64,000 nucleotides of DNA from Candidatus Hermodarchaeota archaeon. GTDB taxonomy: Archaea > Asgardarchaeota > Thorarchaeia > Thorarchaeales > Thorarchaeaceae. Position numbers and translations under genes: made by a program. Where the stretch lies: NCBI GenBank assembly GCA_048885865.1, contig JBHLLF010000016.1, forward strand, positions 1 through 64,000. Direction: 5' to 3'. Position 1 is the first letter of the stretch. Each line of letters starts with the position of its first letter. Under the pieces are notes generated by a model that searched no databases, was not told the DNA's origin, and saw only the letters and a list, made by a program, of their open reading frames with translations. Positions 7,094-48,829 of the stretch are shown one piece after another.

Positions 7094-7098
7094 TTCTC

Positions 7099-7923: not shown

Positions 7924-7996
7924 AATTGATTCTTCCTTTATTCAAGGTCTTAAATCACATTGGTCAGCGAAAAGCATATCGCATGACTGAGTTGAT

Positions 7997-8896: not shown

Positions 8897-10689
8897 CTTT
8901 GTTCAACTAGCAATTCGTTAATCCCTTTCTCTACCCTCGTAAGAATCGTTGAAACCTGTTCAAGCTCTTTCTCAATGAGTCTATAGATCTTGGATCTTTC
9001 TTTCTCGAGCTTGGCTAGAGGCTTGTGAAGTGGTATCCAGTTGTAAGCCAAGTCTGGTTGACTCTCATATTTGTCAACATACTCGGGAGTCAGACTTCCC
9101 ACGGGAGTGCCCCTTAATGTCATTATAGCAGCGTTAAGCGCAACATAGTCTTCGATAAGCTCCAATCGTGACAAGTAGTCAACATCATCAGGAGCTGTTA
9201 CCCTCCATAGCCATCCAATCGTGGCATTAATCAGATAAGTAACTGAGCTCAGAAACCGATTTGCCTTCTGAATTAGCTGGTTGTCCCCTTTCTTGACAAT
9301 AGATTTCAGTTTCTTGTTGAACTGAACCTTCTTTGTGCGTATATCTCTGATTCGAAGTAGATGCTGTGTCATGTCAAAAGGACAATATCTCATCCTGCTA
9401 TACTTGGAGATGATATCTTCGAATCTCAATAAGGGAGTGAATATATCAATCGGCATGAGACTTGCATTCGCCAATTGGATGAGTGCATTTTTCATGAAAT
9501 TGGCATAGCGTAAAACTGCCTGGTAGTCTATATGGTCAAGGTCATCTTTCTGAGTCTGATATAGATGACTTGGAAATGTCACTCCGTATATGGTCGGCAC
9601 ACCTGAAATCTCAAAGAACCAGTGATCACTGCCGTATCCGGGAGGATTGTAGAATTCGAAACCTTGGAGTGATTTTTCTGCAGATTCAATGCCCTTAGCA
9701 AAATGCAGCAAATCTGCAGTGGTCCCAATAAATCTCTCAGCAGGCTTTGGAAATCCGACTGAATCAAGACTGAGAAAAGCTGCTACTTTGGAAACGTTTC
9801 GATTCCTTTCCAAATAGGCCCTAGAACCATTGCACCAGTAGTAGAATCCCTCATTGCCACCATTTTCTGCACCAAAGAACAAGAATCGCACACTTCTCTT
9901 CAATGCACCACCATTCTGTACATATTCTTGGAGTAACCGAGCCAGCTCCAGAAAAATAGCTACCGGAGCACAATTATCTGCAGCCCCTGTGAACCAGCTA
10001 TCCATGTGAGTTCCTACAAAGATTTCAGGTTCGGAACTGCTCTGCCCTTCTAGAACAGTTTCTATGTTCATTGACTCCGCAGTAGAGGAAACATCGACGT
10101 CCGCATCAATTTCCAACTCGACCTCACTCTCTTCTAGGAGGTTGAGTAGGTAAACGCCATCTTCCCTTGAGATGCTTATAACAGGAATCTTCAGCAGTCT
10201 ACCGGATTCGACTACCACCACTTTCCGAAGATCTCCTTCGTCAGGAGTTGAGATTAGAACTGCATCTAGTCCTCGTCGTATAGCTTCGTAGTAGGTGCGT
10301 GTAGGAGACGAGTAGAGGTGAGAGCCCCAATCAGACAGCCCTATTGAGGCACCATCATCGTTAGTTCCATTTTCGTCTAGTTGACTTATCTGTGTCAACT
10401 TCCCTATGGCTCTTAGGCTCTGAGAATATGGAAAGAGAGCGGCCTTGATTTCCTTCTCAATTGGTTTCAGAATTTTAATTCTGCAAGAATTGGGATTCCA
10501 GCCACGGATCTCAAAAGTCATAGTTTCTATTTCTTCATAGCCAAACCCGCGAAGACATTCAATAATGTATTCAGAAGCACGATGCTCATTCGGCGATCCG
10601 GCTATCTTATGTCCAATTGAATGTAAGTCAGTCATAGTTGCTCTAATCTTATCGAGTGAAGGATTCTCCACACCATAGCCTCCAAGCAT
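8893..10689 (-). CDS. M28 peptidase homolog with PA domain, paralog A (degenerate Zn site)
   Basis: THMDSW..GAADN, SLD and GSDH motifs, but GAEN and HLYQT. Start at 10689 (ATG) or 10671 (GTG). Confidence 0.85.
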   Translation of the reverse strand: MLGGYGVENPSLDKIRATMTDLHSIGHKIAGSPNEHRASEYIIECLRGFGYEEIETMTFEIRGWNPNSCRIKILKPIEKEIKAALFPYSQSLRAIGKLTQISQLDENGTNDDGASIGLSDWGSHLYSSPTRTYYEAIRRGLDAVLISTPDEGDLRKVVVVESGRLLKIPVISISREDGVYLLNLLEESEVELEIDADVDVSSTAESMNIETVLEGQSSSEPEIFVGTHMDSWFTGAADNCAPVAIFLELARLLQEYVQNGGALKRSVRFLFFGAENGGNEGFYYWCNGSRAYLERNRNVSKVAAFLSLDSVGFPKPAERFIGTTADLLHFAKGIESAEKSLQGFEFYNPPGYGSDHWFFEISGVPTIYGVTFPSHLYQTQKDDLDHIDYQAVLRYANFMKNALIQLANASLMPIDIFTPLLRFEDIISKYSRMRYCPFDMTQHLLRIRDIRTKKVQFNKKLKSIVKKGDNQLIQKANRFLSSVTYLINATIGWLWRVTAPDDVDYLSRLELIEDYVALNAAIMTLRGTPVGSLTPEYVDKYESQPDLAYNWIPLHKPLAKLEKERSKIYRLIEKELEQVSTILTRVEKGINELLVEQR

Positions 10690-10691
10690 CA

Positions 10692-11987
10692 CTACAGCTG
10701 CTTGAACTCCTTCTCGAGCAGGCTCAGAACTTTCTGAGATTCTTCCTCGGTCATGCACAGCGGAGGCTGGAGTCGAATAACATTCTTCTTTACTCCGCCT
10801 GTTCCAACCAAGACACCATTCTTCATGAGGTTCTTGGCTACTGACTGTGTTTCATCGACTGCGGGTTCCTTTGTACCTTTGTCCTTCACCAGCTCGATGC
10901 CTATCATGAGGCCCCTTCCTCGAACTTCGCCAATGTGTTTGTTGCCCTCTTGAACCTCCTTTAATTGCTTCATCAGACTGCCGCCAATCTTTTCTGAATT
11001 CTTGACCAGCCCTGCATCCTCAAGATAGTTGAGATTCTCTAGAGCGACAGCGCAGCAAACAGGATTCCCGCCAAAGGTTGAGAAGTGATCACCTGACTCT
11101 AGACAGTCTGCAATCTCGTCTGTAGTGATATAGCCGCCAATCGGCATCCCTGCACCCAATCCCTTTGCCATTGTGATGATATCAGGCTTGATTCCGAACT
11201 CTTCAATTGCAAACATCTTTCCTGTTCTTCCAAAGCCAGTCTGAACTTCATCAGCAATGTAGAGAATATCGTGGTCTTTGCAGATGTTTTGCACCAAGTC
11301 ATGATACTCCTTTGGGGGCACGACTAAGCCGCCCTCACCTATGATTGGCTCAATAATCATAGCTGCAACATCGCCTGTGGTATGATACTTGATGATTTCC
11401 TCGACTCTTCTTGCACATTCAGTGTTACAGTCAGGAAATTCAAGCGGGCATCTATAGCAATACGGCATTGGAGCATGCACAACACCGGGAGCATTGGCAA
11501 AAGTCCCAAAGCCATGCTTGTACTTTGATTGACCAGTCAGCGTTAGTGAGAGGCCAAGTCGGCCATGGAAGGAGCCCTCCAATGCAATGACACCGGCACC
11601 TGTACGGCCCTGAGTCACGCTATACTTCTTGGCAATCTTGACGCCCCCCTCAACAGCCTCGGCACCACTGTTGCAGAAGAATGATTTTGTTAGGCTGTCT
11701 GGTGTGAGACCAGCCAGTTTTTCAGCCAGCAATGTTTGAGGAACATTGTGATAGAGGCCAGAACAGTGAATGAGCTTCGATAATTGCTCCGCCCCTGCTT
11801 TTACAATCCTTTCTGGACTATGACCTGCATTCACAACCGAGATTCCACTAATACAGTCAATATACTCCGTTCCATCAAGATCTCGTACAATGGTGTTTTT
11901 CCCCTCGTAGATGACTATGGGTTTGCGAGCATATGCGGGGACCATGTACTTGGACTCTTTCTCGATTATTTCATCTCTATCTACCAT
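10692..11987 (-). CDS. Class III PLP aminotransferase (GABA/ornithine/putrescine-type)
   Basis: NSGAEAVE, SFHGR, DEVQTGFGRTG, MAKG and HFSTFGGNP motifs. Confidence 0.95.
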   Translation of the reverse strand: MVDRDEIIEKESKYMVPAYARKPIVIYEGKNTIVRDLDGTEYIDCISGISVVNAGHSPERIVKAGAEQLSKLIHCSGLYHNVPQTLLAEKLAGLTPDSLTKSFFCNSGAEAVEGGVKIAKKYSVTQGRTGAGVIALEGSFHGRLGLSLTLTGQSKYKHGFGTFANAPGVVHAPMPYCYRCPLEFPDCNTECARRVEEIIKYHTTGDVAAMIIEPIIGEGGLVVPPKEYHDLVQNICKDHDILYIADEVQTGFGRTGKMFAIEEFGIKPDIITMAKGLGAGMPIGGYITTDEIADCLESGDHFSTFGGNPVCCAVALENLNYLEDAGLVKNSEKIGGSLMKQLKEVQEGNKHIGEVRGRGLMIGIELVKDKGTKEPAVDETQSVAKNLMKNGVLVGTGGVKKNVIRLQPPLCMTEEESQKVLSLLEKEFKQL

Positions 11988-12068: not shown

Positions 12069-12115
12069 TGAACAACCATAAGAAGAGTGCCAACACTGTT
12101 GAACATCAATGAACA
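12069..12115 (-). promoter_or_regulatory. 47-bp four-box operator/promoter upstream of the aminotransferase operon
   Basis: TGTTCA-ttga-TGTTCA-acag-TGTTGG-cactcttcttatggt-TGTTCA on the minus strand. Confidence 0.85.
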
Positions 12116-12144
12116 TTCTCTCTACGCGACTTTTGCTTGAGCTC

Positions 12145-13947
12145 CTAGTTTCCCACCAACTTGCTTAGATCCTCAAATATGCTACGTAACATTGTTGATA
12201 GGTTCTCTAGCTCCATCTCAATCTCTTTACCGATTCTGGCGCGTTCATTCTCTATATTTGCAATAGAGTCATGAATTCTTAGCCAATTGTAGGGATTATC
12301 AGGCTTTGACTCGATTCTTTTTGCAGAATCTAAGTCAAAAGTAGCTACTGGTATATTGCGTATGCTCTTGATGGCATTTGTCAGATGGATATAGTCCTCA
12401 ATCATCTCAAGACGGTAGAGATAGTCAATGCTGTAAGTTTCTATTGGACGCGTATTCCAGCCAATGGTTCGATTAAACCCATTGGCAGCTTTCAAGAGAA
12501 ACTTGTTGATTCCTGCCACATCATCCGGTTCATGCTGTTGGACCATTTTTGTGAAAGAGGATTTGAATTTCATTAGGCTCTTCACTTTGGCAATAATTGG
12601 TTCAAGATTAAATTCGTTTCCTTCCATTTTGTTGTATTTTGAGAGAATTGAGTCGAATCTCTCAAGTGGAACGAAGATATCCATTGGCAGCAAATCTGTG
12701 CTTGAGAGATAGGAAAGAGCCTTTTTCATGAACTCTGCATAGAATTGCAATGCATCATAGTCCAAATGGTCTGGATCATCCTTTGATGTGTGATATAGAT
12801 GACTTGGTTGAGCCATACCATGTTCTGATGGAACTCCTGATACACCATATATGGTTGGGACTCCTGATAATTCAAAGAACCAGTGGTCGCTGCCATAACT
12901 CGGTGGGATTCTATATGTCAAGGATCGAGATCTCCCATGTTCCACATTCAAAGATTTCGCGAATCCCAATAGCTCTCCGGTGGTTTGGAGATAGTCTATT
13001 GATGGGTTGGCATATCCTGTAGAGTCTAGACTCAAGACTGTCACGGTCCTGGAAACTGATTCTTTGTTATCTCTGACATAGGCTCTTGATCCATTTAGCC
13101 AGAAATAGAGGTTGTCGGTTCCACTTTCCTCAGCACCATAGAAAAGGAATCGTATGGTTCTTTTGGGAACTTCGCCTAGCTTTGATTGAGCATGGAAAAT
13201 TCTAGCAAGTTCGAGCACAATGGCTGCAGGAGCACAATTATCAGCTGCTCCTTGGAACCATGAGTCATAATGTGCTCCTATGACAATCTCTTCATTGGTT
13301 GTGCCATCACCCTCAAGAATCGCGACTACATTGAAGGAGTCCAGTTTTTCTGAAACCTCAACTTCCGTATCAATTCTAGCAACCACATCACCCTCGTTCA
13401 TCATTGAGAGCAGAGAATCTCCTTCTTCCTTTGTTATGCAGACAACCGGGATTTTGAGGTGTCTCTCCGGAATGACTACGACTTTCAGTAGGTCACCTTC
13501 ATCCTTTGCTGCTACAATCAAACCTTCATAGCCAAGTTTTGCAGCACGATAGTATGTATACCTTGGACTGAGATAGGTATCTGGTCCCCATTCAGTGAAG
13601 CCAATCAGACCCGTTCCTATTGAGGATGAACTCGGTTCATCTGCATCAATCTCCCAATCAACTGGGGCAAGCTTTCCTTCTACTGACTCAGATTTTCCAT
13701 GCGGAAATAGGGCAGATTCCACCTCCTTTTGAACCGGCTTCGTGATCTTGACACTACAGGATTTTGGTTCCCACCCAATCACATCGAATGGCTGCATCTC
13801 GACCTTCTTAAAACCAAAATCCAAAAGGCGGTCACGAAGATAGCTCGCGGCTTCAACCTCTGCCTTTGTTCCTGCAACCTTCTGTCCGAAGGCGCAAAGT
13901 TGCTCAACAGTATTTCTAATCTCTGAGATTGATGTCCTTTCAACCAT
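12145..13947 (-). CDS. M28 peptidase with PA domain, paralog B (intact Zn ligands)
   Basis: AHYDSW..GAADN, GAEES, SLD, GSDH and HLYHT motifs; helical C-terminal domain; no signal peptide. Confidence 0.9.
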   Translation of the reverse strand: MVERTSISEIRNTVEQLCAFGQKVAGTKAEVEAASYLRDRLLDFGFKKVEMQPFDVIGWEPKSCSVKITKPVQKEVESALFPHGKSESVEGKLAPVDWEIDADEPSSSSIGTGLIGFTEWGPDTYLSPRYTYYRAAKLGYEGLIVAAKDEGDLLKVVVIPERHLKIPVVCITKEEGDSLLSMMNEGDVVARIDTEVEVSEKLDSFNVVAILEGDGTTNEEIVIGAHYDSWFQGAADNCAPAAIVLELARIFHAQSKLGEVPKRTIRFLFYGAEESGTDNLYFWLNGSRAYVRDNKESVSRTVTVLSLDSTGYANPSIDYLQTTGELLGFAKSLNVEHGRSRSLTYRIPPSYGSDHWFFELSGVPTIYGVSGVPSEHGMAQPSHLYHTSKDDPDHLDYDALQFYAEFMKKALSYLSSTDLLPMDIFVPLERFDSILSKYNKMEGNEFNLEPIIAKVKSLMKFKSSFTKMVQQHEPDDVAGINKFLLKAANGFNRTIGWNTRPIETYSIDYLYRLEMIEDYIHLTNAIKSIRNIPVATFDLDSAKRIESKPDNPYNWLRIHDSIANIENERARIGKEIEMELENLSTMLRSIFEDLSKLVGN

Positions 13948-14024
13948 ATACAAATCCCCAGTGACTGATTGATACGATAGTCACACTGAATTGAGTGTGG
14001 GTTCGTACGTGTAACAACATAGTG

Positions 14025-14071
14025 TGAACAATCTAAAGAAAGGTCCCAACATGCATGTTCAACACTGAACA
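14025..14071 (-). promoter_or_regulatory. 47-bp four-box operator/promoter upstream of M28 paralog B
   Basis: TGTTCA-gtgt-TGAACA-tgca-TGTTGG-gacctttctttagat-TGTTCA on the minus strand. Confidence 0.85.
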
Positions 14072-14148
14072 AGAATAGATAGCACCTAAAGAGCCATAAC
14101 CGGTTCTGCATTTAGAGTAGTATTCAGATGAAATGACGAGGCTGCCAA

Positions 14149-15132
14149 ATGAAACGAAATCATGGGCCAATTCTCTTTCTGACTTTGTTTCTTTTAATCA
14201 CATTGGCTTTCGCAGACTCTTCGATTTCATTTGAAAACCAACCCACTGACCTAAATGGCATCAAGGTTGCTGTCTATGAAGGCGTTACTGATGAACAATC
14301 GTCCAGCCTTTCCAGCCGAACTGCGCTATTCTGGATGTTTCGATGGATGAATGCTACGGTTGACGTGGTAACTGCTGCAGACATTAGAAATGACATTCTT
14401 AACGACTATGATATTATTGCTATACCGGGAGGATGGGCATGGGCGTATTTTCAAGACCTTACAAATTCAGGAGTTGTAAGGATTCGAAGTTTTGTTGAGA
14501 ATGGAGGAGCGTTTTTTGGAGTCTGCGCTGGAGCCTACTTTGCTTGTGACAATATCAGATGGGAAGGTGAAAACATTGGTTACTCACTTGACCTCTACCC
14601 GAATCTAGGCATTGGGCCCATTGAGGAAATTGCAGCATGGCCAGGTCACAACATGACGAGGATAAACCTAAACAAGGCTGTCACTGGACCAGATCTATCT
14701 GGAGAGCCAGACTCTCACATCGTAATGTATTACGGTGGGCCATATTTTGAAACTGGTGGAACAGATGGAGTGACTGTTCTCGCAACTTATGATGTTAATG
14801 ATGAGCCAGCTATTATTGCCTATGAATATGGGCAAGGTCGGATAGTTCTCTCAGGTCCGCATGTAGAGTGGGAGGAAGATGCTGATCGAGATGGAGTGGC
14901 ATGGGAGAATGTGTATGATGATGCGGGATCAGAGTGGGACATGATGCTGCAAATCGGGCTTTGGCTTTCCGAAAATGGATTTGAAGCTACAACATCTTAT
15001 ACTACTTCATCATCAACTACTGCAGACTCCAGTCCTACATTACCTCCAATGGAAATCGACCCTGCTCTTGGCCTAGTTGTAATTCTTGCGGTCGTCGTGA
15101 TTGCGATGGTCGTTGATAGACTAAGGAAGTGA
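14149..15132 (+). CDS. Secreted, C-terminally anchored BPL-N (class I glutamine amidotransferase-like) protein
   Basis: Signal peptide; IPGG, GVCAGAY, YYGGPYF and GPHVE motifs; S/T/P linker then TM and RLRK. Confidence 0.82.
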   Translation: MKRNHGPILFLTLFLLITLAFADSSISFENQPTDLNGIKVAVYEGVTDEQSSSLSSRTALFWMFRWMNATVDVVTAADIRNDILNDYDIIAIPGGWAWAYFQDLTNSGVVRIRSFVENGGAFFGVCAGAYFACDNIRWEGENIGYSLDLYPNLGIGPIEEIAAWPGHNMTRINLNKAVTGPDLSGEPDSHIVMYYGGPYFETGGTDGVTVLATYDVNDEPAIIAYEYGQGRIVLSGPHVEWEEDADRDGVAWENVYDDAGSEWDMMLQIGLWLSENGFEATTSYTTSSSTTADSSPTLPPMEIDPALGLVVILAVVVIAMVVDRLRK

Positions 15133-15176
15133 ATGGTTTAGCGCAAGAAATGTGCGAATCCATTCACAGGGACACA

Positions 15177-15233
15177 TGTTCATGACTGGCACGCTATGAA
15201 CAAGAGTGTTCGGTGGATTTTAATTGGTGTACA
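15177..15233 (+). promoter_or_regulatory. Four/five-box operator/promoter upstream of the ABC importer operon
   Basis: TGTTCA-tgac-TGGCAC-gcta-TGAACA-agag-TGTTCG-gtggattttaattgg-TGTACA. Confidence 0.8.
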
Positions 15234-15274
15234 CTAGTACTTTACGAACATCTTTATTTCAGGATGTGACATCT

Positions 15275-17212
15275 GTGAAAAAGAAGAAAGCACTCATGGC
15301 ATTGTCTCTGGCGGTCTTCATGATCTTACCAGTGTTTGCTTTCATACCGACTACTGCAGTAGCGCAGACACCTAAGATTGTCAAGATTGGGATGTTTGAC
15401 GAACCAGACAGCCTTAATCCAGTCATGGCCTCAGAGATTGTTTCATGGTATTTTATTAATTGGATCTTCGATCCTTTGGTTAGATGGGATGACGACTGGG
15501 GAATTCAGCCTTGTCTAGCTGAGAGCTGGGAGTGGGCACCAAATGGCACGCAGTTAGTGATGCATATGGACCCAGATGCAGCTTGGCATGACGGAACTCC
15601 ATTCACGGCACATGACGCAAATTGGACACTCTTTACGTGGACTTGGCTTGGATTCTGGGTAGGCCAGACACCTCGTATCGATCACAGAAACATCAAGGTC
15701 CCAGACGACCACACTCTTGTCCTCAATTTTGTGGATAGTGGTTATGAGAACATATACGAATGGCCCACTGGAACACAACGTGACGTATACAATGGGACGT
15801 CTGTTGCGATTAACAAGGAAGCATTTCTTACAGGACTCACATATGTGCCAATCCTTGCAAAGCATCTATGGGATCCATTGACTTGGAATGATCCATTCTA
15901 TGGAACCGAAGGTTCTTCTGGGTACTTCCAGACCTTTGGTTGGCAAGATTGCATTTGGTGGGGCATGCTTGACCCTGCGTGGCCAACACCGCTGAATGGG
16001 ACTGGAGCATTCATGCTGGACGAATATGTAGTGGGAGAGTACATCAGACTTGATGCCAATCCCGACTACCACTTAGGCGCACCCAAGATTGATGGAATCC
16101 TTTGCACATTCTACGACACTGTAGAAGTAATGACTGAGGCTGTGAAGGCAGGAGATATTGACTTTTGCGAATCTGCACCGGCATTCATAGAGCTTGGAAC
16201 CATACCACCTGAGGTCACCATAAATGAGAACGCTTGGATGGGCTGCGAATTACTCCTTGTGAACCAGTACTACAACTACACAAATGCTCAGGGAGAGTAT
16301 GCCGGTCGTGAAAAGCGCAACGCCCTCCGGCAGCTAGAAGTCAGAAAAGCAATGAATCAGGCCATCGATAAGGCGCAGATAGCTGAAGTTGCATATCTAG
16401 GACACGCGAGTGCAGCCGACTCGCTAATCCATTCTGAGCTCAAGTGGCACAACGACGCGCTTGTCACCTATCCCAAAGGCGTCGCCGCAGCTAGGGCAAC
16501 CCTCGAAGCTGCTGGATGGGTAGAGAATCTAGATGGAGTCTATGAGAAAGACGTAGATGGGACTTTAGAAACACTGTCCTTTTCCATCAAGTATGTGACC
16601 GGTATTCCAACAGACTTCACAATTGTGTCTCTTATTGGTGCGTATCTTGAGGCTGCAGGATTTGATATCAGTACGGTCCCTCTTGAAGAAACAACCTTCA
16701 CAGCAGAAACCGCTACAGACATTTGGGACTTTGACATGGCTCTCACCGCCTACAGTCAGATTGCAGATCCAAACAGCATGATGCAATATATGACAAGCGA
16801 TAGCTGGATTAACCCGAATGCTGTGAATATCACAAGGGTTGATGAGATATACAAAGAACAGCAGTTGACAACTGACGATGCACATCGAGCAGATCTATGT
16901 GATGAGTTCCAGCAGTTAATGTACGATGATTCTAGTGTCATTGTTCTTGTCGAGTTTACTGACATTGAGCTTTACAGAAATGATGCTTGGACTTTCACTA
17001 ACACGGACTGGCAGAGCGGCATCTTGTCAATGTGGAATATCAATTCCTGGCTTGGAGTTGACGTGCCTGTAACACCAACGACAACACCCCCAACTGGGAC
17101 TACAACACCTCAACCTCCACCTCCGCCACTACCTGTGGAACTCCTCCTGGCAGTTGGCGTTGGAGTAGCGGTGCTCGTGGTTGTCATAGTACTTGTAGTA
17201 AGGAAAAGATAG
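15275..17212 (+). CDS. ABC transporter solute-binding protein, family 5 (Opp/Dpp-like), membrane anchored
   Basis: EPDSLNP, LAESWE, WHDGTPFTAHD and NGTGAF motifs; Pro/Thr linker plus C-terminal TM. GTG start at 15275 inferred. Confidence 0.93.
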   Translation: MKKKKALMALSLAVFMILPVFAFIPTTAVAQTPKIVKIGMFDEPDSLNPVMASEIVSWYFINWIFDPLVRWDDDWGIQPCLAESWEWAPNGTQLVMHMDPDAAWHDGTPFTAHDANWTLFTWTWLGFWVGQTPRIDHRNIKVPDDHTLVLNFVDSGYENIYEWPTGTQRDVYNGTSVAINKEAFLTGLTYVPILAKHLWDPLTWNDPFYGTEGSSGYFQTFGWQDCIWWGMLDPAWPTPLNGTGAFMLDEYVVGEYIRLDANPDYHLGAPKIDGILCTFYDTVEVMTEAVKAGDIDFCESAPAFIELGTIPPEVTINENAWMGCELLLVNQYYNYTNAQGEYAGREKRNALRQLEVRKAMNQAIDKAQIAEVAYLGHASAADSLIHSELKWHNDALVTYPKGVAAARATLEAAGWVENLDGVYEKDVDGTLETLSFSIKYVTGIPTDFTIVSLIGAYLEAAGFDISTVPLEETTFTAETATDIWDFDMALTAYSQIADPNSMMQYMTSDSWINPNAVNITRVDEIYKEQQLTTDDAHRADLCDEFQQLMYDDSSVIVLVEFTDIELYRNDAWTFTNTDWQSGILSMWNINSWLGVDVPVTPTTTPPTGTTTPQPPPPPLPVELLLAVGVGVAVLVVVIVLVVRKR

Positions 17213-17241
17213 CATTAAACAAAAAATACGAAACTAGAGAT

Positions 17242-17268
17242 TGAACAGACAGAAATTCTGTCTGTTCA
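17242..17268 (+). terminator. Perfect inverted repeat between the SBP and permease genes (terminator or mRNA-stabilising stem)
   Basis: TGAACAGACAGAA-A-TTCTGTCTGTTCA, followed by TTCCCCATTTTTT. Confidence 0.65.
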
Positions 17269-17304
17269 TTCCCCATTTTTTAAAAGTCACAAAGAACAGA
17301 GTGG

Positions 17305-20031
17305 ATGAGGATGGCATTAAGAGACGTCTTGCTGAAACGAATAGCCCAGGCAATTGTGACAATCTTCATTGTACTTGCAATTGATTTCGTGATATTCCAC
17401 ATTCTTCCGGGCGACCCAATGACCTTTCTAGCTCGAAATCCAAACCTATCGGAAGTCGCCCAAGAGAGAATGATTGAGCAGTTTGGACTTGATAAACCAC
17501 TATGGGAGCAATTCATTCTCTTTCTTGCTAATTTCCTCCAAATGAGACTAGGTATGTCTTTCCATTTCCGAGAAGAAGTAGGACCGATTATAATTCACCA
17601 CCTAGGAAATACTCTGATTCTAGTATTGCCTGCATCTATTGGGGCGATAGTCATAGGAATTTGGGTGGGAAAGAACTCAGCTTGGCGTCGTGGCAAAGCA
17701 GGCGATTTAGTCGGCCTTCTATTCTCGTTAATCACTTACTCAATTCCCACGTTTTGGCTAGGCATGTTCTTCATCATGCTGTTTGCATTTGGCCTTGGGT
17801 GGTTCCCTGCAACTCCAGGCTTGACTACCCCCGGCATGGATTTCACTGGTGATCCTGTCGGTTTGATTATAGATATGATTTCTCACTTGATGCTTCCATG
17901 GACGGTGCTCATTGTAGCAATCCTTGGCTCTTTTGCTCTAATTACTAGGAACGCACTACTTGATGTATTGAGCGAGGACTACATGCTTACTGCCAAAGCA
18001 AAGGGGAGAACTGAGAAAGATCAGCTGAATAAGGAAGCGATGCCGAATGCTATGATCCCCATTACAACGGTGATCGCTCTTCAGCTTGGATTTTCAGTTG
18101 CAGGGGCACTTCAGACTGAAGTCGTATTTTCTTATCCTGGCATCGGGAATCTAATTTGGGAAGGAGTCTACTATCGCGACTATCCGCTTTTGCAGGCTGC
18201 GTTCTTTATGATAACCGTAGTAGTGGTGTTTGCCAATCTCATTGCGGACTTCATCTATTTCTATCTAGACCCAAGAATTAGAGTTGGTGCTGAATTCACA
18301 ATAAGTGAGGAGAAACCTCCAAGACCGCTCTCTCATTATGGCTTGGCAGTGATAGCAGTAGTGGCACTATTGTCTACGTGGGCTGTAATAGGTATAACCA
18401 CAGTTCTTCCGCTCTTCATTCTCATACTAATCATAAAAAGAAAGCCTGTTCTGCAATTCTTAAAGGCTCGACTTAGCACACTAACTCCCTCAAACCTTCT
18501 TTACGCTTGGAAGACCAAACGGTCACAGATTCTAGTTCGATTCTCTGCGATTTCCCTAGTTATCAATTTGATTGCTTTAAGCATCATAGCGATATCAGGA
18601 GTCTTCATCCCTGAATGGGGCTTCTTCTGGGGCGCTGCATTTTTCGGATTACGGTCGTTCCCCCCCATTCCACCAGGAATGGAATATCCGGAATGGTCTT
18701 TGGCTCTAGCATCAATTGCCCATCCATCAGTTATGCAAATCGCCCTTACTGGCATAGCGTTAGGAGTCATCTTGGGTAGGAGAAAAAGCCTCGGTGCCAC
18801 CTCAAGTCGATTCATGAAAACACGTATGGGCACAGTTGGAATCTCCCTTGTGGCAATGTTCGCAGGAATGACGCTCTTTGGAGATATTATTGCCCCATAT
18901 AATCCTGAGGCATTTTTCACTGGAATATGGTATCAGCCTCCTGATATTATGCCAGAGATGCAAATGCTCATGGTAACAGGGGGCGCGGCATCACTTATTG
19001 GTGCGACAATAATCTGGTGGATATTTGATCGTATAAAACAGCCTGCTATTCCTAGACACTTCATTTCAATTCTAACTGGAGGACTCATTCTATTTGTTTC
19101 ATTGTTATTTGCGGAACGGTCTCTCCAGGTTGAAAATCAAGCTACCTTGGTCTATTCTGTAGGGATTGGACTCATCGCGGTCGTTATCATTCTGAGAAGC
19201 TTAATGACAGCAAGACAAGATTCCATCCTTCAGAGTCTAAAAATGCACCTTCCAAGATTATTAATCGCTCTAGTGGGTGTGATAGGAGTTGGCGTTCTAG
19301 TCCAGGGCATTCTTCAAGCACCTTGGGCAGTCCCTCTTGATTTTCCAGGTTACCACCTTATGGGTACGGACCAATTGGGTAGAGATGTATATAGCCAACT
19401 AATTATCGCTGTGAGGATCACACTTCTGATTGGAATCGTTGCTACAACGATGTCTGTCATTATAGGCACTCTGATAGGCCTTGTTGCAGGCTACTATGGT
19501 GGAATTATCGACTCCTTCCTGATGCGATTCACAGACATATTTTTCGTAATCCCGAGTCTACTACTAATGATTGTTATGGCTGCTGTCTTGGGACCGTCGA
19601 TTGTGACGCTCATTATTGTGATTGGTCTGTTCTCTTGGTCCTCCACCGCACGCATTGTAAGAGGGCAGGTACTATCGGTTAAAGAACGGACTTACATCGA
19701 GAGGGTGAGAGCGGTTGGCGGGGGCAATTTCTACATCATGGGCAAGCATGTTCTGACGGCTGTTGCTCCACTTGTTGTTGCCAACACAATCCTTGTGACT
19801 GCGTGGGCGATTCTCTCAGAAGTCGTCTTGGATTTCTTTGGCCTTGGAGACCCTGCTATGATAAGCTGGGGCACTATGCTATATCTCGCATTTAATGCTG
19901 GTTCGATGTCTAATAACCTGTGGTGGCTAGTATTTCCCCCAGGAATCATGGTTGTGCTTCTCCTCCTCGGTGTGTCAATGGTAGGATACGCCATGGATGA
20001 GATTGTTAATCCAAGACTTAGGAGGAGGTAG
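17305..20031 (+). CDS. Fused OppB/OppC-type ABC permease with extra TM segments
   Basis: OppB motifs (LPGDP, EDYMLTAKAKG, RDYP, LDPRIR) and OppC motifs (MGTDQLGRD, YIERVRAVG, NPRLR) in one 908-aa ORF. Confidence 0.92.
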   Translation: MRMALRDVLLKRIAQAIVTIFIVLAIDFVIFHILPGDPMTFLARNPNLSEVAQERMIEQFGLDKPLWEQFILFLANFLQMRLGMSFHFREEVGPIIIHHLGNTLILVLPASIGAIVIGIWVGKNSAWRRGKAGDLVGLLFSLITYSIPTFWLGMFFIMLFAFGLGWFPATPGLTTPGMDFTGDPVGLIIDMISHLMLPWTVLIVAILGSFALITRNALLDVLSEDYMLTAKAKGRTEKDQLNKEAMPNAMIPITTVIALQLGFSVAGALQTEVVFSYPGIGNLIWEGVYYRDYPLLQAAFFMITVVVVFANLIADFIYFYLDPRIRVGAEFTISEEKPPRPLSHYGLAVIAVVALLSTWAVIGITTVLPLFILILIIKRKPVLQFLKARLSTLTPSNLLYAWKTKRSQILVRFSAISLVINLIALSIIAISGVFIPEWGFFWGAAFFGLRSFPPIPPGMEYPEWSLALASIAHPSVMQIALTGIALGVILGRRKSLGATSSRFMKTRMGTVGISLVAMFAGMTLFGDIIAPYNPEAFFTGIWYQPPDIMPEMQMLMVTGGAASLIGATIIWWIFDRIKQPAIPRHFISILTGGLILFVSLLFAERSLQVENQATLVYSVGIGLIAVVIILRSLMTARQDSILQSLKMHLPRLLIALVGVIGVGVLVQGILQAPWAVPLDFPGYHLMGTDQLGRDVYSQLIIAVRITLLIGIVATTMSVIIGTLIGLVAGYYGGIIDSFLMRFTDIFFVIPSLLLMIVMAAVLGPSIVTLIIVIGLFSWSSTARIVRGQVLSVKERTYIERVRAVGGGNFYIMGKHVLTAVAPLVVANTILVTAWAILSEVVLDFFGLGDPAMISWGTMLYLAFNAGSMSNNLWWLVFPPGIMVVLLLLGVSMVGYAMDEIVNPRLRRR

Positions 20032-21026
20032 TGGAGCAAATGACTGAAGCATCATCACAAATCCCTGCTGGTCAACCCCTACTCAAGGTATCAGGTCTGA
20101 AAGTGTACTATCATATATCCCAAGGAATCGTCAAAGCAGTCGACGAAATCGATTTCACAGTGAACTGCGGAGAGTTTGTTGGGCTTAGCGGGGAAAGCGG
20201 CTGTGGAAAGACAACCACTGCGATGACATTGATGAAGATTCTCCCTCGAGAAGGAGTCATTGAAGGAGGGCAAGCTCTCTTCAACAACCGTGACATTCTC
20301 ACCATGAAGACAAAGGAGATTCAGGCATTTCGTTGGCAGGAAATATCAATGGTCTTTCAGGGAGCCATGAACTCACTAAATCCAGTGCATCGTGTAATTG
20401 ACCAAATGGTGAAAGCAATACAAATCCACCAGCGTATGCCGCGAGAGAAGGCTAGAGAAATAGCACTTGAACTTATAGAATCCGTGGGAATTGACAAATC
20501 GAGAGCAAGAGCATATCCTCATGAACTTAGTGGGGGAATGAAACAACGTCTAATGATTGCCCTCGCTCTTGTGCTACATCCGCCCCTTGTTATTGCTGAT
20601 GAACCAACCACTGCGCTGGATGTGATGATCCAAGCACAGATTCTTGATCTCTTCAAGCAACTCAGAAAAAGAACAAGTCTATCTCTCCTAATAATAACAC
20701 ACGACTTGTCAGTCCTAGCTGAAACCTGTGACAAGGTGATCATAATGTATGCTGGAAAGATAGTAGAAGAGGCTTCGACTGAGATACTCTTCAACGAACC
20801 AGCACACCCCTATACCAGGAAGCTCATTTCATCATTCCCAAGCATTCTCGCCGATAAGGAGATAGACTTCATCCCAGGAAATCCACCAGATCTGATTGAC
20901 CCCCCGGTAGGATGTAACTTCCATCCAAGGTGCAGTTATGCAGCTGATATCTGCAAAACTGAAGAGCCTCCACTTATTGACGAAGGAGGACATAGAGTGG
21001 CTTGTTTTAGGAGGAATGAGATTTAA
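20031..21026 (+). CDS. Opp/Dpp-type ABC ATPase (OppD-like)
   Basis: GESGCGKTT, LSGGMKQR and DEPT motifs; C-terminal Cys cluster. Confidence 0.95.
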   Translation: MEQMTEASSQIPAGQPLLKVSGLKVYYHISQGIVKAVDEIDFTVNCGEFVGLSGESGCGKTTTAMTLMKILPREGVIEGGQALFNNRDILTMKTKEIQAFRWQEISMVFQGAMNSLNPVHRVIDQMVKAIQIHQRMPREKAREIALELIESVGIDKSRARAYPHELSGGMKQRLMIALALVLHPPLVIADEPTTALDVMIQAQILDLFKQLRKRTSLSLLIITHDLSVLAETCDKVIIMYAGKIVEEASTEILFNEPAHPYTRKLISSFPSILADKEIDFIPGNPPDLIDPPVGCNFHPRCSYAADICKTEEPPLIDEGGHRVACFRRNEI

Positions 21027-22012
21027 TGCAGAACGCAATTCTGGAAACCAGAAACCTCAAGAAATGGTTCACGGTGAGGGCTGGGTTCCTCTCAAGCCTC
21101 ATCTCAAAAGGATCTGACACCTTTATTCGGGCTGTTGATGGAGTTGACCTAGAGATCAACCAAGGCGAGGTCTTTGCGATTGCAGGAGAAAGCGGTTGTG
21201 GAAAGACCACAATTGCAAGACTGATTATGCGATTAGAATCGTTGACCGACGGTGAGATTTGGTTCGAGGGAGAGAAAATCTCTGCATTGAATGAGGGTAA
21301 GTTCAAGGAGTATCGAAGAAGAATCCAGATGATTTTCCAAGACCCATACGGTTCGCTTAGCAATAATATGACGATAGGCGAGATTGTGGCAGAGCCTCTC
21401 AAGATTCATAGTGTCTACGCCTCATCAAGTGAAATCGAAGAGCGTGTGCTAGCTGCACTTGAGGACGTAGGCCTTCGTCCTGCAAAGGAGTTTGCAAGTA
21501 GGATACCCCATGAATTGAGTGGAGGACAAAGGCAACGTGTGGCAGTGGCTGCAGCACTCGTATTGAATCCCGTTCTTCTCATTGCTGACGAACCAGTTTC
21601 GATGCTAGATGTTTCAATGAGGGGACAGATTCTGAAGCTATTGCTTGAGCTCCGGGAAAAGAAAGGAATCACGCTAGTGTTGATAACACATAATCTGGCT
21701 GTAGCCAAACAGATGTCAGATAGGATTGCAGTTGCATACCTGGGCAGAGTTGTTGAAACTGGAGTTACTAAAGACATCATCGACAACCCAAGCCATCCCT
21801 ACACAAAAGCGCTGGTTTCAGTCGTCCCTGTTCCAGAAACTGGTGTAAAAAGAGAAAGACTCCTTCTCACAGGGGAGATTCCAAGTCCGATTGACATCCC
21901 AACAGGTTGTAGATTTCATACTCGGTGCCCATTTGCAAAGGAAAAGTGCAGCGTGGAAGAACCTGAACTGAAGACAATGCCCGATGGACGGCAAGTCGCC
22001 TGCCATGATTAG
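21026..22012 (+). CDS. Opp/Dpp-type ABC ATPase (OppF-like)
   Basis: GESGCGKTT, LSGGQRQR, DEP and GCRFHTRC motifs. Confidence 0.95.
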   Translation: MQNAILETRNLKKWFTVRAGFLSSLISKGSDTFIRAVDGVDLEINQGEVFAIAGESGCGKTTIARLIMRLESLTDGEIWFEGEKISALNEGKFKEYRRRIQMIFQDPYGSLSNNMTIGEIVAEPLKIHSVYASSSEIEERVLAALEDVGLRPAKEFASRIPHELSGGQRQRVAVAAALVLNPVLLIADEPVSMLDVSMRGQILKLLLELREKKGITLVLITHNLAVAKQMSDRIAVAYLGRVVETGVTKDIIDNPSHPYTKALVSVVPVPETGVKRERLLLTGEIPSPIDIPTGCRFHTRCPFAKEKCSVEEPELKTMPDGRQVACHD

Positions 22013-22020
22013 GGAGAATC

Positions 22021-22067
22021 TGTTCATCATTGTTCATATGTGTTGGGAGTGCTTTTCATCATGTTCA
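22021..22067 (+). promoter_or_regulatory. 47-bp four-box operator/promoter upstream of the corrinoid/methyltransferase pair
   Basis: TGTTCA-tcat-TGTTCA-tatg-TGTTGG-gagtgcttttcatca-TGTTCA. Confidence 0.85.
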
Positions 22068-22110: not shown

Positions 22111-22758
22111 ATGAGTGATGCAATTGAGAATCTGAAACAAGCTGTTATTGATGGTGATGCAGAGGCTGTTTCCAAATACTCCACTGAGGCAATAGAATCC
22201 GGTGCAGCACCTCTGGATATTCTGGAAAGGGGCATCTCTGAAGGGGCGAAAACAGTGGGTGAGCAATTTGAACGAATGGAGATCTTCCTCACTGAGCTAA
22301 TGCTTTCAGGAGAAGCTATGATGGCGGGGCTAGAAGTGGTTCTGCCGCATATTGAAGCTGGGGATGTACCACAGAGGGGAAAGGTCGTAGTAGGCACAGT
22401 GCGAGGCGATATCCATGAGATTGGTAAGAACATCTTCAAGTCACTCCTTGTAGCTAATGGGTTCGAAGTGAGTGACATAGGCGTTGATGTCCCAACATCC
22501 AAGTTCATTGAAGAGGCTGAGAGGATAAACGCCGATATCATAGCCATATCAGCACTCATGACTTCAACACTTGGAGGGCAGAAGGATGTCATTGACTATC
22601 TTGAGCAGTCTGGTAAACGAGGAGAATTCATGGTAATGGTTGGAGGGGGTCCCACCAATCAGGAATGGGCAGACGAGATAGGAGCAGATGGCTTTGCAGA
22701 AACTGCACCTGAAGCTGTGAGGGTGGCCATGCAACTCGTTGAGAAAAGGAGGGGCTGA
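22111..22758 (+). CDS. Methyltransferase cognate corrinoid protein (MtmC/MtbC-like)
   Basis: GTVRGDIHEIGKN (DxHxxG), SALMTST and VGGGP..IGADG motifs. Confidence 0.95.
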   Translation: MSDAIENLKQAVIDGDAEAVSKYSTEAIESGAAPLDILERGISEGAKTVGEQFERMEIFLTELMLSGEAMMAGLEVVLPHIEAGDVPQRGKVVVGTVRGDIHEIGKNIFKSLLVANGFEVSDIGVDVPTSKFIEEAERINADIIAISALMTSTLGGQKDVIDYLEQSGKRGEFMVMVGGGPTNQEWADEIGADGFAETAPEAVRVAMQLVEKRRG

Positions 22759-22762
22759 ACTC

Positions 22763-24142
22763 ATGATTCCAATCATCGAGATTGCTAAAAGAGCACTTGA
22801 CGGAAAGCCGCTCATAGAAAAAGAGTATGACATGAGGGTATTTTCTCCTAGGGTCCGAGAACTTGTAAAGGAGTATGGTATTAGCTATGATCCCGATGTT
22901 CTGGTTCCATCAGATGATGGTCTCGCGGACGCAGTATTCAAAGCGGCCTTTGATCTCATCTGTAACGTGGGAGTATATTGTAAAGACACAGAGCGGATCA
23001 TTGCCTTCGAAGAGAAAGAGGTTCGCAGCGAACTGAAGACCTCTTTTGACCACGCTGTTCTAGGAGAAGGAATGGAACAGAGAACTTTGCTACCGAGGAA
23101 ACCAGAATCCAAGGAAAAACCATGGATATTCGCTGGAGCGGGTGGTGTAACTGTTTCAGATGAGAGTATCTTCGTGCGTCTTGTGGAGAATTATGCAAAG
23201 AGAATTCCAATTGCCAATGCCATCACAACCCCATGCTTGCTCTCTGTTGATGGCGCCAATATCAGGGCCAAATCACCTCTTGAAATCGAAGGCTCAATTC
23301 GCACAGTTGTTTTGGGCAGAGAAGCTCTGAGAAGAGCAGGTCGGCCTGGACTTCCTATTATGAATGCTATTGGCACAGCAGAATCAGCGATTGCACTAGC
23401 ATCTGGACTTCATCCAGATTTTGGCCTACGGAAGACAGATGGATATATGATTGCAGAGCTAGCAGAACTCAAGACAGATCTGGATCTCCTCAACCGAGCA
23501 GCATTATTGCAATCACTGAATGTACCCATTGCTGGAATATATGGCCCAATCTATGGAGGATTCGCAGGTGGAGCAGAAGGCACAGCTGTCACCAGTACTG
23601 CATTTCACATTCAGGGGATTCTCACCTACGGTGCTTCATGGACACTCTGTTTCCCCATTCATATCAAGTATACATCAAGCTCATCACCTGAACTGATATG
23701 GCTGGCTGCTCTCTACTCACAGGCTGTCAGCAGAAACACAAAGGTTCCAGCGCTTTATTACAACTACACTGCTGCAGGCCCTTGTACAGAGATGGTCCTT
23801 CAGGAATTTGCTGCAGAGTTCATTGCAGCTGTTTCCTCAGGAGCCTCAATAGAAACTGGAGGAGTGGCAAAAGGGAAATACTTTGACTATCTGACACCCA
23901 TTGAGCCTATGTTTGCTTCAGAAGTAGCGTATGCAACCGCGGGCGTTAAGAGATCTGACGCAAATGAAATTGCTAAACAGATTGTGCCAAAGTTCATTGA
24001 CAAGGTTCCTGATCCTCCAAGAGGCAAGCGTTTCCAAGAATGCTGTGACATGGTGACCGGGGACCCTTCAAAGGAATGCTTTGAGATATACGAGAAGGTG
24101 AAGAAGGAGGTTTCTGACCTCGGAATCGAGTTTCTTTATTGA
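22763..24142 (+). CDS. mtmB: Monomethylamine methyltransferase MtmB-family protein, pyrrolysine-free
   Basis: DGLADAVFKAAF, YCKDTERII, AGRPG, ELKTDLD, PIYGGFAGG, AGPCTEM and PRGKRFQEC match MtmB; no in-frame TAG. Confidence 0.88.
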   Translation: MIPIIEIAKRALDGKPLIEKEYDMRVFSPRVRELVKEYGISYDPDVLVPSDDGLADAVFKAAFDLICNVGVYCKDTERIIAFEEKEVRSELKTSFDHAVLGEGMEQRTLLPRKPESKEKPWIFAGAGGVTVSDESIFVRLVENYAKRIPIANAITTPCLLSVDGANIRAKSPLEIEGSIRTVVLGREALRRAGRPGLPIMNAIGTAESAIALASGLHPDFGLRKTDGYMIAELAELKTDLDLLNRAALLQSLNVPIAGIYGPIYGGFAGGAEGTAVTSTAFHIQGILTYGASWTLCFPIHIKYTSSSSPELIWLAALYSQAVSRNTKVPALYYNYTAAGPCTEMVLQEFAAEFIAAVSSGASIETGGVAKGKYFDYLTPIEPMFASEVAYATAGVKRSDANEIAKQIVPKFIDKVPDPPRGKRFQECCDMVTGDPSKECFEIYEKVKKEVSDLGIEFLY

Positions 24143-24145
24143 TGA

Positions 24146-25288
24146 TTAGCCCAATCGATATTTCCTGCCAATCTCTGGCTTCTCTCCGAAGTAGAGGACA
24201 GCAGTAGAAACACCTTCTTCACGCGCGAACTCGTCCACTCCCTCAAAACGCAGCAAAGCGAGAAGGAGCTTTAGCCCCAGGTCCTTCATGAAGGATGTTC
24301 GTGACCTCAATTGCACTCGGGTCAGCTCGTTATCTGTCCTCACATCGCACTTCTCAAGGAGTCCTAGAGAAGTCACACCCAATGCAACTCGCTTTACAAT
24401 GTCAACAATACTGGTTGGAGTTTCGAGTCCGTGGGGGTCCATCTGCTCAATGTGATCTCGAACGCTGATCACCGTTCGTTCATCCAAGGCATCCTTTATC
24501 GTATGATGCATTAGCCATTCAAGTAATGAAGGGCTCAACGTAACGGCTCCACTTTGGCCTGCCTGCATGAGCATGATTTCTCTACGTTCCTGCCATAGAC
24601 TGAGAACTCGTCTGTCACGGTCTTCTTTAATGGTGCTAAAGACACGAGAATCAACCCACATCACACTGATTTTATTCTCAGCAACAACTTCTGCATCAAC
24701 AGTATACCCAGCTTCATCCCACTCAGCTATAAGCATCAACAGGAGAATCTCTGGTTGTTCACGCATGAGCTTGGCCGTTGCTAGAATGGTCTTACGCTCG
24801 GGATGAATCTCGACAGACCCAAAGATGCCCATTCTTTCCAGAAGCTTCACATTGCTCACAAATGAGTCAAATGAGTTTTTCCACATCTCCTGTGGAATGG
24901 TTCCTAGTCCGCGAAGTAGTTTCGTTTGTTGATGACCGATTCTTTGAAGCCTGGATATGAGTTCCGAAGCTCCTTGACCAGAACAACCAAGCTGGGCTAA
25001 GACAGATAGAACTTGAGAGCTCACAAGACCCATGTCAGCAGAATCGATAAGTGATCTGCGTAGGTTTGACACCTCCATGGCCTCGCATTCATCACAACTT
25101 GGTATATCTCGTCTAGTGCTGTAGAAATCTACTGCTTCCTCCAATACATCATTGATGCGACCTGTTTCACCAGCCAAATCATGAAGAAGCTGACGTGTGC
25201 CTGCAGAAATGGTAGTATGGAGATGCACTCTTGACGCAGAAGACTTGCGCCTCTCAGACTCCGCAGCTCTTCCTTGTTCTTTCCTCAT
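24146..25288 (-). CDS. Putative transcription regulator: N-terminal ribbon-helix-helix, CxxC, tandem ligand-binding-like domains
   Basis: RVHLHTTIS-AGTRQLLHDLA-GRINDVLEEAVDFY strand-helix-helix pattern, then SCDEC. Start uncertain. Confidence 0.65.
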   Translation of the reverse strand: MRKEQGRAAESERRKSSASRVHLHTTISAGTRQLLHDLAGETGRINDVLEEAVDFYSTRRDIPSCDECEAMEVSNLRRSLIDSADMGLVSSQVLSVLAQLGCSGQGASELISRLQRIGHQQTKLLRGLGTIPQEMWKNSFDSFVSNVKLLERMGIFGSVEIHPERKTILATAKLMREQPEILLLMLIAEWDEAGYTVDAEVVAENKISVMWVDSRVFSTIKEDRDRRVLSLWQERREIMLMQAGQSGAVTLSPSLLEWLMHHTIKDALDERTVISVRDHIEQMDPHGLETPTSIVDIVKRVALGVTSLGLLEKCDVRTDNELTRVQLRSRTSFMKDLGLKLLLALLRFEGVDEFAREEGVSTAVLYFGEKPEIGRKYRLG

Positions 25289-25404
25289 GAACATCATCTC
25301 AAGAAGCATGTTCACAATAGCGTCTCCAAGATGATGGTGTGAACATAAGGTCTCCGTACAAACTGGATCGAATGGAGCTGTGTTGAGTCATGTACATATC
25401 AACA
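25288..25404. promoter_or_regulatory. TGWWCA boxes in the divergent regulator/M20 intergenic region
   Basis: TGAACA 25288, TGTTCA 25309 (15-nt spacer), TGAACA 25340, TGTTGA-N4-TGTACA 25381-25396, TCAACA 25399. Confidence 0.65.
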
Positions 25405-25477
25405 CAAAATATGAAGAACAGCAGATTTAATCAAAGCGTATGCATTGCAGAATCAAGATGGAGGCATTAGGTCATCG

Positions 25478-48770: not shown

Positions 48771-48829
48771 CGTACAACTTCCCTATTTAAACCTGCCCAT
48801 CTCTGTACATCAGTCCCCATATCTGTACA
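48771..48829 (-). promoter_or_regulatory. trpB2 promoter with TRP-box-like TGTACA array
   Basis: TGTACA-gata-TGGGGA-ctga-TGTACA-gaga-TGGGCA-gg-TTTAAATA-gggaagt-TGTACG. Confidence 0.7.

Follow-up and report, generated by a model that had tools for sequence, protein, structure and literature searches.

We analysed a window of 64,000 nucleotides, that is, the whole stretch at positions 1 to 64,000 of contig JBHLLF010000016.1 in the assembly GCA_048885865.1 of a Candidatus Hermodarchaeota archaeon (Thorarchaeaceae, Thorarchaeia, Asgard archaea; hereafter the source genome). The window harbors an island of transport, peptidase, aminotransferase, and corrinoid methyltransferase genes, four promoters of which carry arrays of short TGWWCA boxes separated by spacers of 4, 4, and 15 nucleotides (N4, N4, and N15), together with a gene coding for a protein of 380 amino acids (aa), the only one of the island without an enzymatic or transport assignment (Table 1). 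According to the sequence comparisons and structure models described below, the island appears to represent a real regulon, restricted to these genes and endowed with a rigid operator architecture, and the 380-aa protein would be a strong candidate for its regulator, belonging to an undescribed family.

The database relatives of the local proteins all come from Thorarchaeota or Promethearchaeota (Asgard) assemblies, and the source genome encodes the TATA-binding protein (TBP). The gene order of the operon behind array 1 recurs in other genomes, and the M20 peptidase gene is found inside the aminotransferase operon in other genera. The gene for the BPL_N/class-I glutamine-amidotransferase-like (GATase-like) protein is syntenic in all the loci compared; in one genome (G009, locus L033), it belongs to an operon preceded by a separate array. 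Since the gene for the MtmB homologue (22763-24142, plus strand) has no in-frame stop, its product is pyrrolysine-free; a 2026 paper (PMC13044021) associates homologues of this kind with tetramethylammonium and choline utilisation. The MtmB homologue is far better conserved across genera (74-95% identity) than the candidate regulator (47-89%), and one relative possesses a second copy elsewhere in its genome (G062:C37:20230-21606), 69% identical, at which no array was detected.

Table 1. Arrays, boxes, and genes of the island, with their positions in the window.
Feature	Position	Strand	Description
Array 1	12069-12115	-	TGTTCA-N4-TGTTCA-N4-TGTTGG-N15-TGTTCA; putative promoter/operator of the aminotransferase operon; 57.8 bits
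Array 2	14025-14071	-	TGTTCA-N4-TGAACA-N4-TGTTGG-N15-TGTTCA; putative promoter/operator of M28 peptidase A; 54.2 bits
Array 3 (five-box variant)	15177-15233	+	TGTTCA-N4-TGGCAC-N4-TGAACA-N4-TGTTCG-N15-TGTACA; putative promoter/operator of the Opp/Dpp-type ABC transporter; 16.2 bits
Array 4	22021-22067	+	TGTTCA-N4-TGTTCA-N4-TGTTGG-N15-TGTTCA; putative promoter/operator of the corrinoid protein/MtmB-homologue operon; 44.9 bits
Regulator's own promoter	25288-25345	-	TGTTCA (25345-25340), N25, TGAACA (25314-25309), N15, TGTTCA (25293-25288)
Extra TGTACA box	25391-25396		In the gap between the regulator gene and the divergent M20 peptidase gene; kept solely in the closest relatives
Operon behind array 1	6335-11987	-	Class-III aminotransferase, M28 peptidase B, C-N hydrolase, polysaccharide deacetylase-like, SDR (Pfam)
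M28 peptidase A, behind array 2	12145-13947	-	PF04389; ATG at 13947
BPL_N/class-I glutamine-amidotransferase-like gene	14149-15132	+	Divergent from array 2 (Pfam)
ABC transporter operon behind array 3	15275-22012	+	Family-5 solute-binding protein, fused permease, two ATPases; Opp/Dpp-type
Corrinoid (B12-binding) protein and pyrrolysine-free MtmB homologue, behind array 4	22111-24142	+	PF02310/PF02607; PF05369
Candidate regulator, 380 aa	24146-25288	-	Predicted from models: N-terminal ribbon-helix-helix at about 19-58, CxxC (C65/C68), long helical hairpin, two alpha/beta modules
M20 peptidase	25445-26779	+	Divergent from the regulator gene (Pfam)

Geometry, specificity, and conservation of the arrays

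The four arrays are all intergenic and oriented toward the downstream gene, 43-82 nt 5' of its start codon. The TGWWCA box is near-palindromic and occurs as TGTTCA, as TGAACA, and as the symmetric form TGTACA. Boxes 1-3 are spaced by one helical turn, and boxes 3 and 4, which flank a TATA-like core, by two turns (21 bp centre to centre). On re-reading the DNA, the coordinates, strands, boxes, and spacers reported in the preliminary description of this region proved to be exact for all four arrays. The additional TGTTCA that it placed 10 bp upstream of array 3 is present as well (15177-15182, the four-box part spanning 15187-15233 on the plus strand), and the T-rich, TATA-like element that it noticed within the N15 spacer corresponds to a conserved core with the consensus TTcTTaT and one invariant T. 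Array 2 sits in the divergent gap common to the genes for M28 peptidase A and the BPL_N/GATase-like protein, and it is possible that it controls the latter gene, too.

Within the source genome, the arrays are restricted to the island. The three-box core was retrieved three times from the window against 0.01 matches expected from shuffled sequences, and in the whole 3.58-Mb assembly, 20 of the 24 box matches were reached solely by three sites, namely, arrays 1, 2, and 4. A weight matrix was then built from 28 sites, all of them from other genomes, and used to score 7.1 million positions of the source genome; at a threshold of 12 bits, only four positions were retained, and these are the four arrays, with array 3 as the weakest and fourth best of them. 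The scan of the whole assembly with the same matrix disclosed no canonical array at either the M20 gene or the BPL_N gene. The preliminary description had called for a genome-wide scan of this kind; since only four sites emerge from 7.1 million positions, the pattern is not common elsewhere in the genome.

A search of 87 Thorarchaeia genomes for the full four-box pattern (allowing at most one mismatch) retrieved 58 matches in 21 of them, and the reversed control pattern retrieved none in the same genomes. Within the family of the source genome, the core pattern is present in 21 of 86 genomes, in one to five copies each; every array-bearing genome except the most fragmentary one harbors at least two copies, which are clustered within a few kb when they fall on the same contig. 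When the spacers were left free to vary (2-7, 2-7, and 10-20 nt), 46 of 49 distinct arrays showed exactly the 4/4/15 arrangement. Moreover, ten other genomes provided 12 loci at which the arrays precede orthologues of the same genes in the same orientation; the proteins are only 45-90% identical. The five-box layout with a degenerate second box is likewise found before the orthologous binding-protein genes (L033, L038, L042, L043, and L044).

The alignment of these sites revealed that the boxes are invariant across six genera, while the spacers have diverged to near-randomness and, like the flanks, are nearly devoid of information. This shows that the boxes and their geometry are under selection. 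The T-rich core, which was not used in the selection of the sites, is fixed in its position within N15 and reads TTcTTaT, TTTTAAT, or CTTTTCT depending on the promoter class. Box 4 is among the strictest, with TGTTCA in 41 and TGTACA in seven of the 49 arrays. At box 2, the three forms are about equally frequent (18 TGTACA, 17 TGTTCA, and 14 TGAACA), which would suit a reader with two-fold symmetry. Judging from the sequences, the arrays are the phylogenetic footprint of what appears to be a protein-binding array assembled around a TATA-like element. The possibility that they are RNA elements was also considered and dropped, since an Rfam scan of the window returned no family at the gathering score and most of each array lies upstream of the presumed transcription start.

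The 380-aa protein, its promoter, and its homologues

The gene for the 380-aa protein is single-copy in the source genome. Its family comprises 36 members among 5.8 billion clustered proteins; those carrying a source name are all annotated as "hypothetical" and all derive from Thorarchaeota or Promethearchaeota assemblies. The protein was detected in 18 of the 21 genomes with arrays; the 65 others yielded no copy. Concerning the three array-bearing genomes from which it is missing, one is 62% complete, and in the other two, the island contigs end or are short. One genome (G024) has kept both the 380-aa protein and the arrays, with no MtmB homologue found. The N-terminus is the most conserved part of the sequence (RVHLHTTIS...GRINDVLEEAV...PxCxxC). 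A search by resemblance in the ESM Atlas suggested AF_0136_C (PF27313) as a look-alike of the 380-aa protein, an unconfirmed lead; the literature searched for AF0136 yielded no pertinent paper.

The promoter of the regulator gene is itself provided with boxes (Table 1), the last of which overlaps the ATG. In all 17 orthologues examined, this promoter has the form TGTTCA-N25-TGAACA-N14/15-TGTTCA, with the last box over the ATG. The centre-to-centre distances of 31 and 20-21 bp imply that these boxes, too, face one side of the helix.

More distant homologues were sought in genomes throughout the phylum. Those from other Asgard families are 16-25% identical to the 380-aa protein and retain the xHxHTT strand and the CxxC motif; one of them has a response-regulator receiver domain as a fusion partner, in line with a role in signalling or regulation. 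In another Asgard family, a homologue of about 645 aa adjoins a glutamate dehydrogenase-like gene whose promoter contains TGTACA-N4-TGTACA-N3-TGAACA-N15-TGAACA, ending 30 nt 5' of the ATG, and the promoter of the homologue itself carries TGTACA-N15-TGTACA around the strong TATA-type sequence ATTAATAAA. The genomes bearing this locus (2.3-2.5 Mb) contain no other N15 box pairs whose spacers are A/T-rich. The cassette around this homologue is conserved (L109 6878-14471, G190:C9, with equivalents at L106-L110) and includes an N-terminally extended glutamate dehydrogenase, a divergent KaiC-like gene, and a fusion of an ADP-forming acyl-CoA synthetase with a GNAT acetyltransferase. Short homologues of about 200-230 aa occur in further families; nine of their loci were fetched, the gene was located in six, and four of these six have TGAACA-N4-TGTTCA or TGTACA-N25(TATA)-TGTACA-N4-TGTACA upstream. 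A stand-alone protein of 91 aa that corresponds to the N-terminal head only (RVRLHMTIS, with the second Cys lost) is encoded in G001 (G001:C123:1476-1751; L121), a genome lacking both the island and the arrays, where one TGTTCA box stands upstream of the gene; this copy could be a relic or, alternatively, a small ribbon-helix-helix protein in its own right.

The boxes and the protein are thus found together at three evolutionary depths. The neighbouring genes differ from one distant-homologue locus to another, the regulator family and the boxes being the sole constants; this represents the strongest argument for the protein being the one that reads the boxes.

The fold predicted for the N-terminus is that of a ribbon-helix-helix (RHH) dimer. 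In the AlphaFold models of this region, an extended segment (residues 19-28) is followed by two helices (29-38 and 45-58). The domain was aligned, without any prefilter, against 48,161 solved chains, and nearly all of the 50 best-scoring chains are RHH proteins, with Z scores of 5.0-3.2 over the whole domain; they include TacA, PutA-RHH, CdbA, CopA, ORF56/CopG, AmrZ, NikR, SvtR, Arc, omega, and ParG. A Foldseek search with the same model returned RHH proteins in nine of 12 rows. The homodimer model of residues 16-70 has an interface score (ipSAE) of 0.47, compared with 0.00 for the best control; this value is attained by 20 of the 30 homo-pairs of known structure and by one of 23 single chains. 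Its predicted local distance difference test (pLDDT) values are at least 73. At least 91% of the contacts agree among three runs, and they are those of an antiparallel ribbon (24:24, 26:22, and 27:21) and of crossed B helices (52:52 and 55:56). The predicted RHH membership rests on the fold and not on the sequence, and the model may draw on a likeness to solved RHH dimers.

Directly after the RHH lies an invariant P-x-C-x-x-C (residues 63-68), and in the dimer model, the two CxxC motifs touch at the interface, hinting at a metal or redox site formed by four cysteines between the subunits. As regards the rest of the chain, a Foldseek search with the full-length model yielded nothing beyond designed proteins and weak rows for H-NOX and TRAPPC3. 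VIA-align with the same model returned mostly helical hairpins and generic alpha/beta folds with Z scores of up to 8.3, and only three chains, designed or engineered, reached Z 8. Residues 83-217 align with Bet3/TRAPPC3 (Z 6.1-6.4 over 118-120 residues, root-mean-square deviation 4.2-4.4) and with H-NOX (Z 6.0), values in the range of common arrangements, and the C-terminal module (292-369) shows only a generic, ferredoxin-like alpha/beta resemblance (Z 7-8).

Mode of action and alternative explanations

In the preliminary description, it was supposed that a multimeric regulator binds one helical face of the arrays and straddles the TFB recognition element and the TATA box, and that the arrays define a regulon; the protein encoded at 24146-25288 was suggested for binding assays. 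Each of these proposals has gained support. The boxes and their geometry are under selection, as would be expected of the operator of an oligomeric factor; boxes 3 and 4 bracket the conserved T-rich, TATA-like core; the putative regulon is a small set of operons restricted to the island, with no further site in the genome; and the choice of the protein agrees with its co-occurrence with the arrays, the RHH dimer model, the boxes of its own promoter, and the distant homologues.

We lean toward the view that the four arrays are the operators of the 380-aa protein and that this is a locus-specific, one-component RHH repressor, released from the DNA by a ligand and limiting its own synthesis. According to this model, the two-stranded ribbon of one RHH dimer (RVHLHTTIS) would read one TGWWCA box, and the dimers on boxes 1-3 would line one face of the DNA, one turn apart. 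Boxes 3 and 4 would bracket the TATA-like core, occupying approximately the position of the TFB recognition element (BRE) and the stretch between TATA and the start; if the centre of the core is placed some 26 nt upstream of the start, box 3 falls at about the BRE, and box 4 covers roughly -17 to -12. Occupancy of the array would then exclude either TBP/TFB or RNA polymerase, that is, it would repress. A ligand or redox signal acting on the CxxC and on the C-terminal alpha/beta modules, and probably related to what the Opp-type transporter imports, would free the DNA and turn on together the transporter, the peptidase/aminotransferase genes, and the corrinoid methyltransferase pair, while the three phased boxes of its own promoter would allow the protein to restrain its own synthesis. 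Repression is favoured because of the occlusion expected from the array, the boxes over the 5' end of the regulator gene, and the known archaeal RHH factors such as aCcr1.

Some observations weigh against this reading. The 380-aa protein has no Pfam match even at E = 10 and no NCBIfam match, and phmmer and hmmsearch runs against the PDB found no match for either the full-length protein or the N-terminal profile. The pLDDT within the RHH domain is about 62-87, a moderate model confidence, and the Z scores of its structural matches are low in absolute terms, as the domain is small. The C-terminal fold matches (Bet3/TRAPPC3 and H-NOX, Z about 6) appear too weak to establish a ligand-binding domain. 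The co-occurrence within Thorarchaeia cannot single out the regulator among the island genes, as the island comes and goes as a unit among genomes that are themselves related. Finally, the TATA-like cores are weak and have no evident BRE, and they are preceded by three of the four boxes, a layout that would also suit an activator.

Activation is, indeed, the main rival: the protein and the boxes would be the same, but ligand-bound dimers on boxes 1-3 would recruit or stabilise TBP/TFB, and only the regulator's own promoter would be repressed. Archaeal activators of the Ptr2 type recruit or stabilise TBP/TFB, and factors such as SurR and TrmBL1 act as activators when bound 5' of the BRE and as repressors when bound 3' of it. 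Besides the three boxes upstream of the core, the sequence of the cores themselves (TTCTTAT and CTTTTCA) and the presence of box 3 in the place where a purine-rich BRE would be sought are in line with such a role. However, box 4, one of the most strictly kept boxes, is located just 3' of the TATA core, where TFB and RNA polymerase must load; bracketing boxes are found even around the strong TATA sequences of homologues (ATTAATAAA); and most of the characterised RHH factors are repressors (PMC9976878). We therefore regard activation as rather unlikely. A smaller probability is assigned to the boxes being read by a different factor, e.g., a TrpY-like or another helix-turn-helix protein, the 380-aa protein being a sensor or enzyme member of the regulon. 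The RHH assignment is, after all, a prediction; TGTACA "TRP boxes" constitute the TrpY operator in Methanothermobacter, where, according to a summary (PMC6737238), they lie in overlapping promoters and mediate repression and autorepression; and the separate TGTACA/TGGGNA array at the trpB2 promoter of the window (see below) suggests that such arrays may serve several factors. Against this stand the absence of any other regulator syntenic with the island, the boxes that accompany the homologues into unrelated contexts in at least three other Asgard families and are present at their own promoters, and the symmetric, flippable six-base box, which is more in keeping with an RHH ribbon than with the half-site of a helix-turn-helix protein. 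The likeness to TrpY is in the boxes, TGTACA being the commonest form at box 2; TrpY controls trp genes with tryptophan, whereas the island, devoid of trp genes, comprises peptidases, an aminotransferase, an ABC transporter, and a corrinoid methyltransferase pair. Given the different targets and a candidate protein that models as RHH, the island system is not a TrpY/TRP-box system. Overall, we consider a different reader improbable.

The arrays might, lastly, not be factor sites at all but copies of a duplicated promoter cassette, or special core elements that serve a basal-factor paralogue, such as an alternative TFB or TBP. The fact that they all belong to one patchily distributed island, resembling a mobile or accessory block, would agree with this explanation, as would box 3 at the BRE position. 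Nevertheless, near-random spacers between boxes that are invariant across six genera speak for selection rather than recent copying, four helically phased hexamer repeats do not resemble a BRE/TATA pair, and boxes are also found downstream of the presumed start, over the regulator ATG; this explanation thus appears very improbable. The Lrp/AsnC gene at 31320-31826 was also considered as the regulator and rejected, as it is absent from all 12 orthologous loci.

The proposal can be extended to the other Asgard families. In this broader form, the 380-aa protein would represent an undescribed, Asgard-wide family of one-component regulators, in which an xHxHTT ribbon reads a shared TGWWCA code and boxes placed at whole helical turns (N4, N15, and N25) clamp the TATA element from both sides, either competing with the TBP-induced bend or locking it. 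We regard this extension as about as likely as not.

The proposed RHH repressor can be compared with several known systems. In omega (pSM19035), CopG, MetJ, and Arc, each dimer binds a short, near-symmetric subsite, the subsites lie on one face in either orientation, binding is cooperative, and the proteins repress their own synthesis. The island arrays share with those operators the short, near-symmetric, repeated, and flippable subsites on one face, and their symmetric six-base boxes, with a 10- or 21-bp pitch, appear to fit the subsites of RHH ribbons; moreover, omega, ORF56/CopG, and Arc are among the best structural matches of the modelled N-terminus. They differ in that those proteins are mostly of bacterial, plasmid, or phage origin, 45-100 aa long, and without a sensor domain, whereas here the RHH heads a protein of 380 aa that no RHH sequence profile recognises, and in that the island operator is built around an archaeal TATA element at a fixed 4/4/15 spacing. 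NikR combines an RHH with a C-terminal metal-sensing domain, and its tetramer bridges two half-sites about two turns apart. The 380-aa protein resembles it in having an RHH head on a sensor body and, like boxes 3 and 4, subsites about two turns apart, and NikR chains are among the structural matches of the modelled N-terminus. However, four or five subsites are present here instead of two, the targets are catabolic and transport operons, and the CxxC is not the metal site of NikR; since no NikR_C/ACT-like domain was detected with Pfam, the 380-aa protein is not a NikR.

As for archaea, aCcr1 and CdrS are RHH transcription factors (PMC9976878, PMC7439475), the former being a repressor with sites at or after the TATA box (PMC9976878). 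In contrast to the 380-aa protein, aCcr1 has 58 aa and no sensor, recognises one or two 9-bp boxes, and acts on cell division genes. To our knowledge, no phased, four-box, TATA-bracketing array has been described for aCcr1 or CdrS. MsvR is a V4R-domain, redox-sensitive repressor of methanogens, with boxes in its own promoter and cysteines that modulate DNA binding (PMC3729527). By analogy, it is the nearest archaeal one-component precedent for a cysteine-modulated autorepression such as the one proposed here. The head of MsvR is a helix-turn-helix and not an RHH, and V4R belongs to the same fold class as Bet3 and H-NOX; the Pfam profile of V4R did not match the 380-aa protein.

Among prokaryotes, Asgard archaea possess the basal transcription apparatus most closely related to that of eukaryotes, and in a limited, non-exhaustive literature search, we found no described transcription-factor/operator pair or regulon from these organisms. 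The island offers a case that can be tested cheaply, with a 47-bp operator, a 380-aa candidate, five island promoters, and the same pairing of protein and boxes in several lineages. The rigid bracketing of TATA suggests a specific mechanism, i.e., a clamp around the TBP site. Furthermore, the putative regulon unites an uncharacterised catabolic island (Opp-type uptake, M28 and M20 peptidases, a class-III aminotransferase, and a pyrrolysine-free MtmB with its corrinoid protein), and viewing these genes as one co-regulated pathway might aid the search for its substrate.

The trpB2 promoter and the genes downstream of the island

A separate array is located at the trpB2 promoter (48771-48829, minus strand) and consists of TGTACA-N4-TGGGGA-N4-TGTACA-N4-TGGGCA, followed by TTTAAATA and TGTACG. 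It scores below 12 bits with the island matrix and is conserved solely in nine genomes of the source genus; two of these are without a detectable copy of the regulator and are less than 66% complete. On the basis of its sequence, this array is probably the operator of another, perhaps TrpY-like, factor; its inclusion in the island regulon is not supported, though it may still be linked to the RHH protein, and it may be the real counterpart of the TRP-box system.

Downstream of the island, the window also encodes an ankyrin-repeat protein (29176-30102, plus strand) and, at 32078-34447 on the same strand, a GH94 gene (cellobiose/chitobiose phosphorylase-type), together with a second Opp-type transporter; all of them are unrelated to the arrays.

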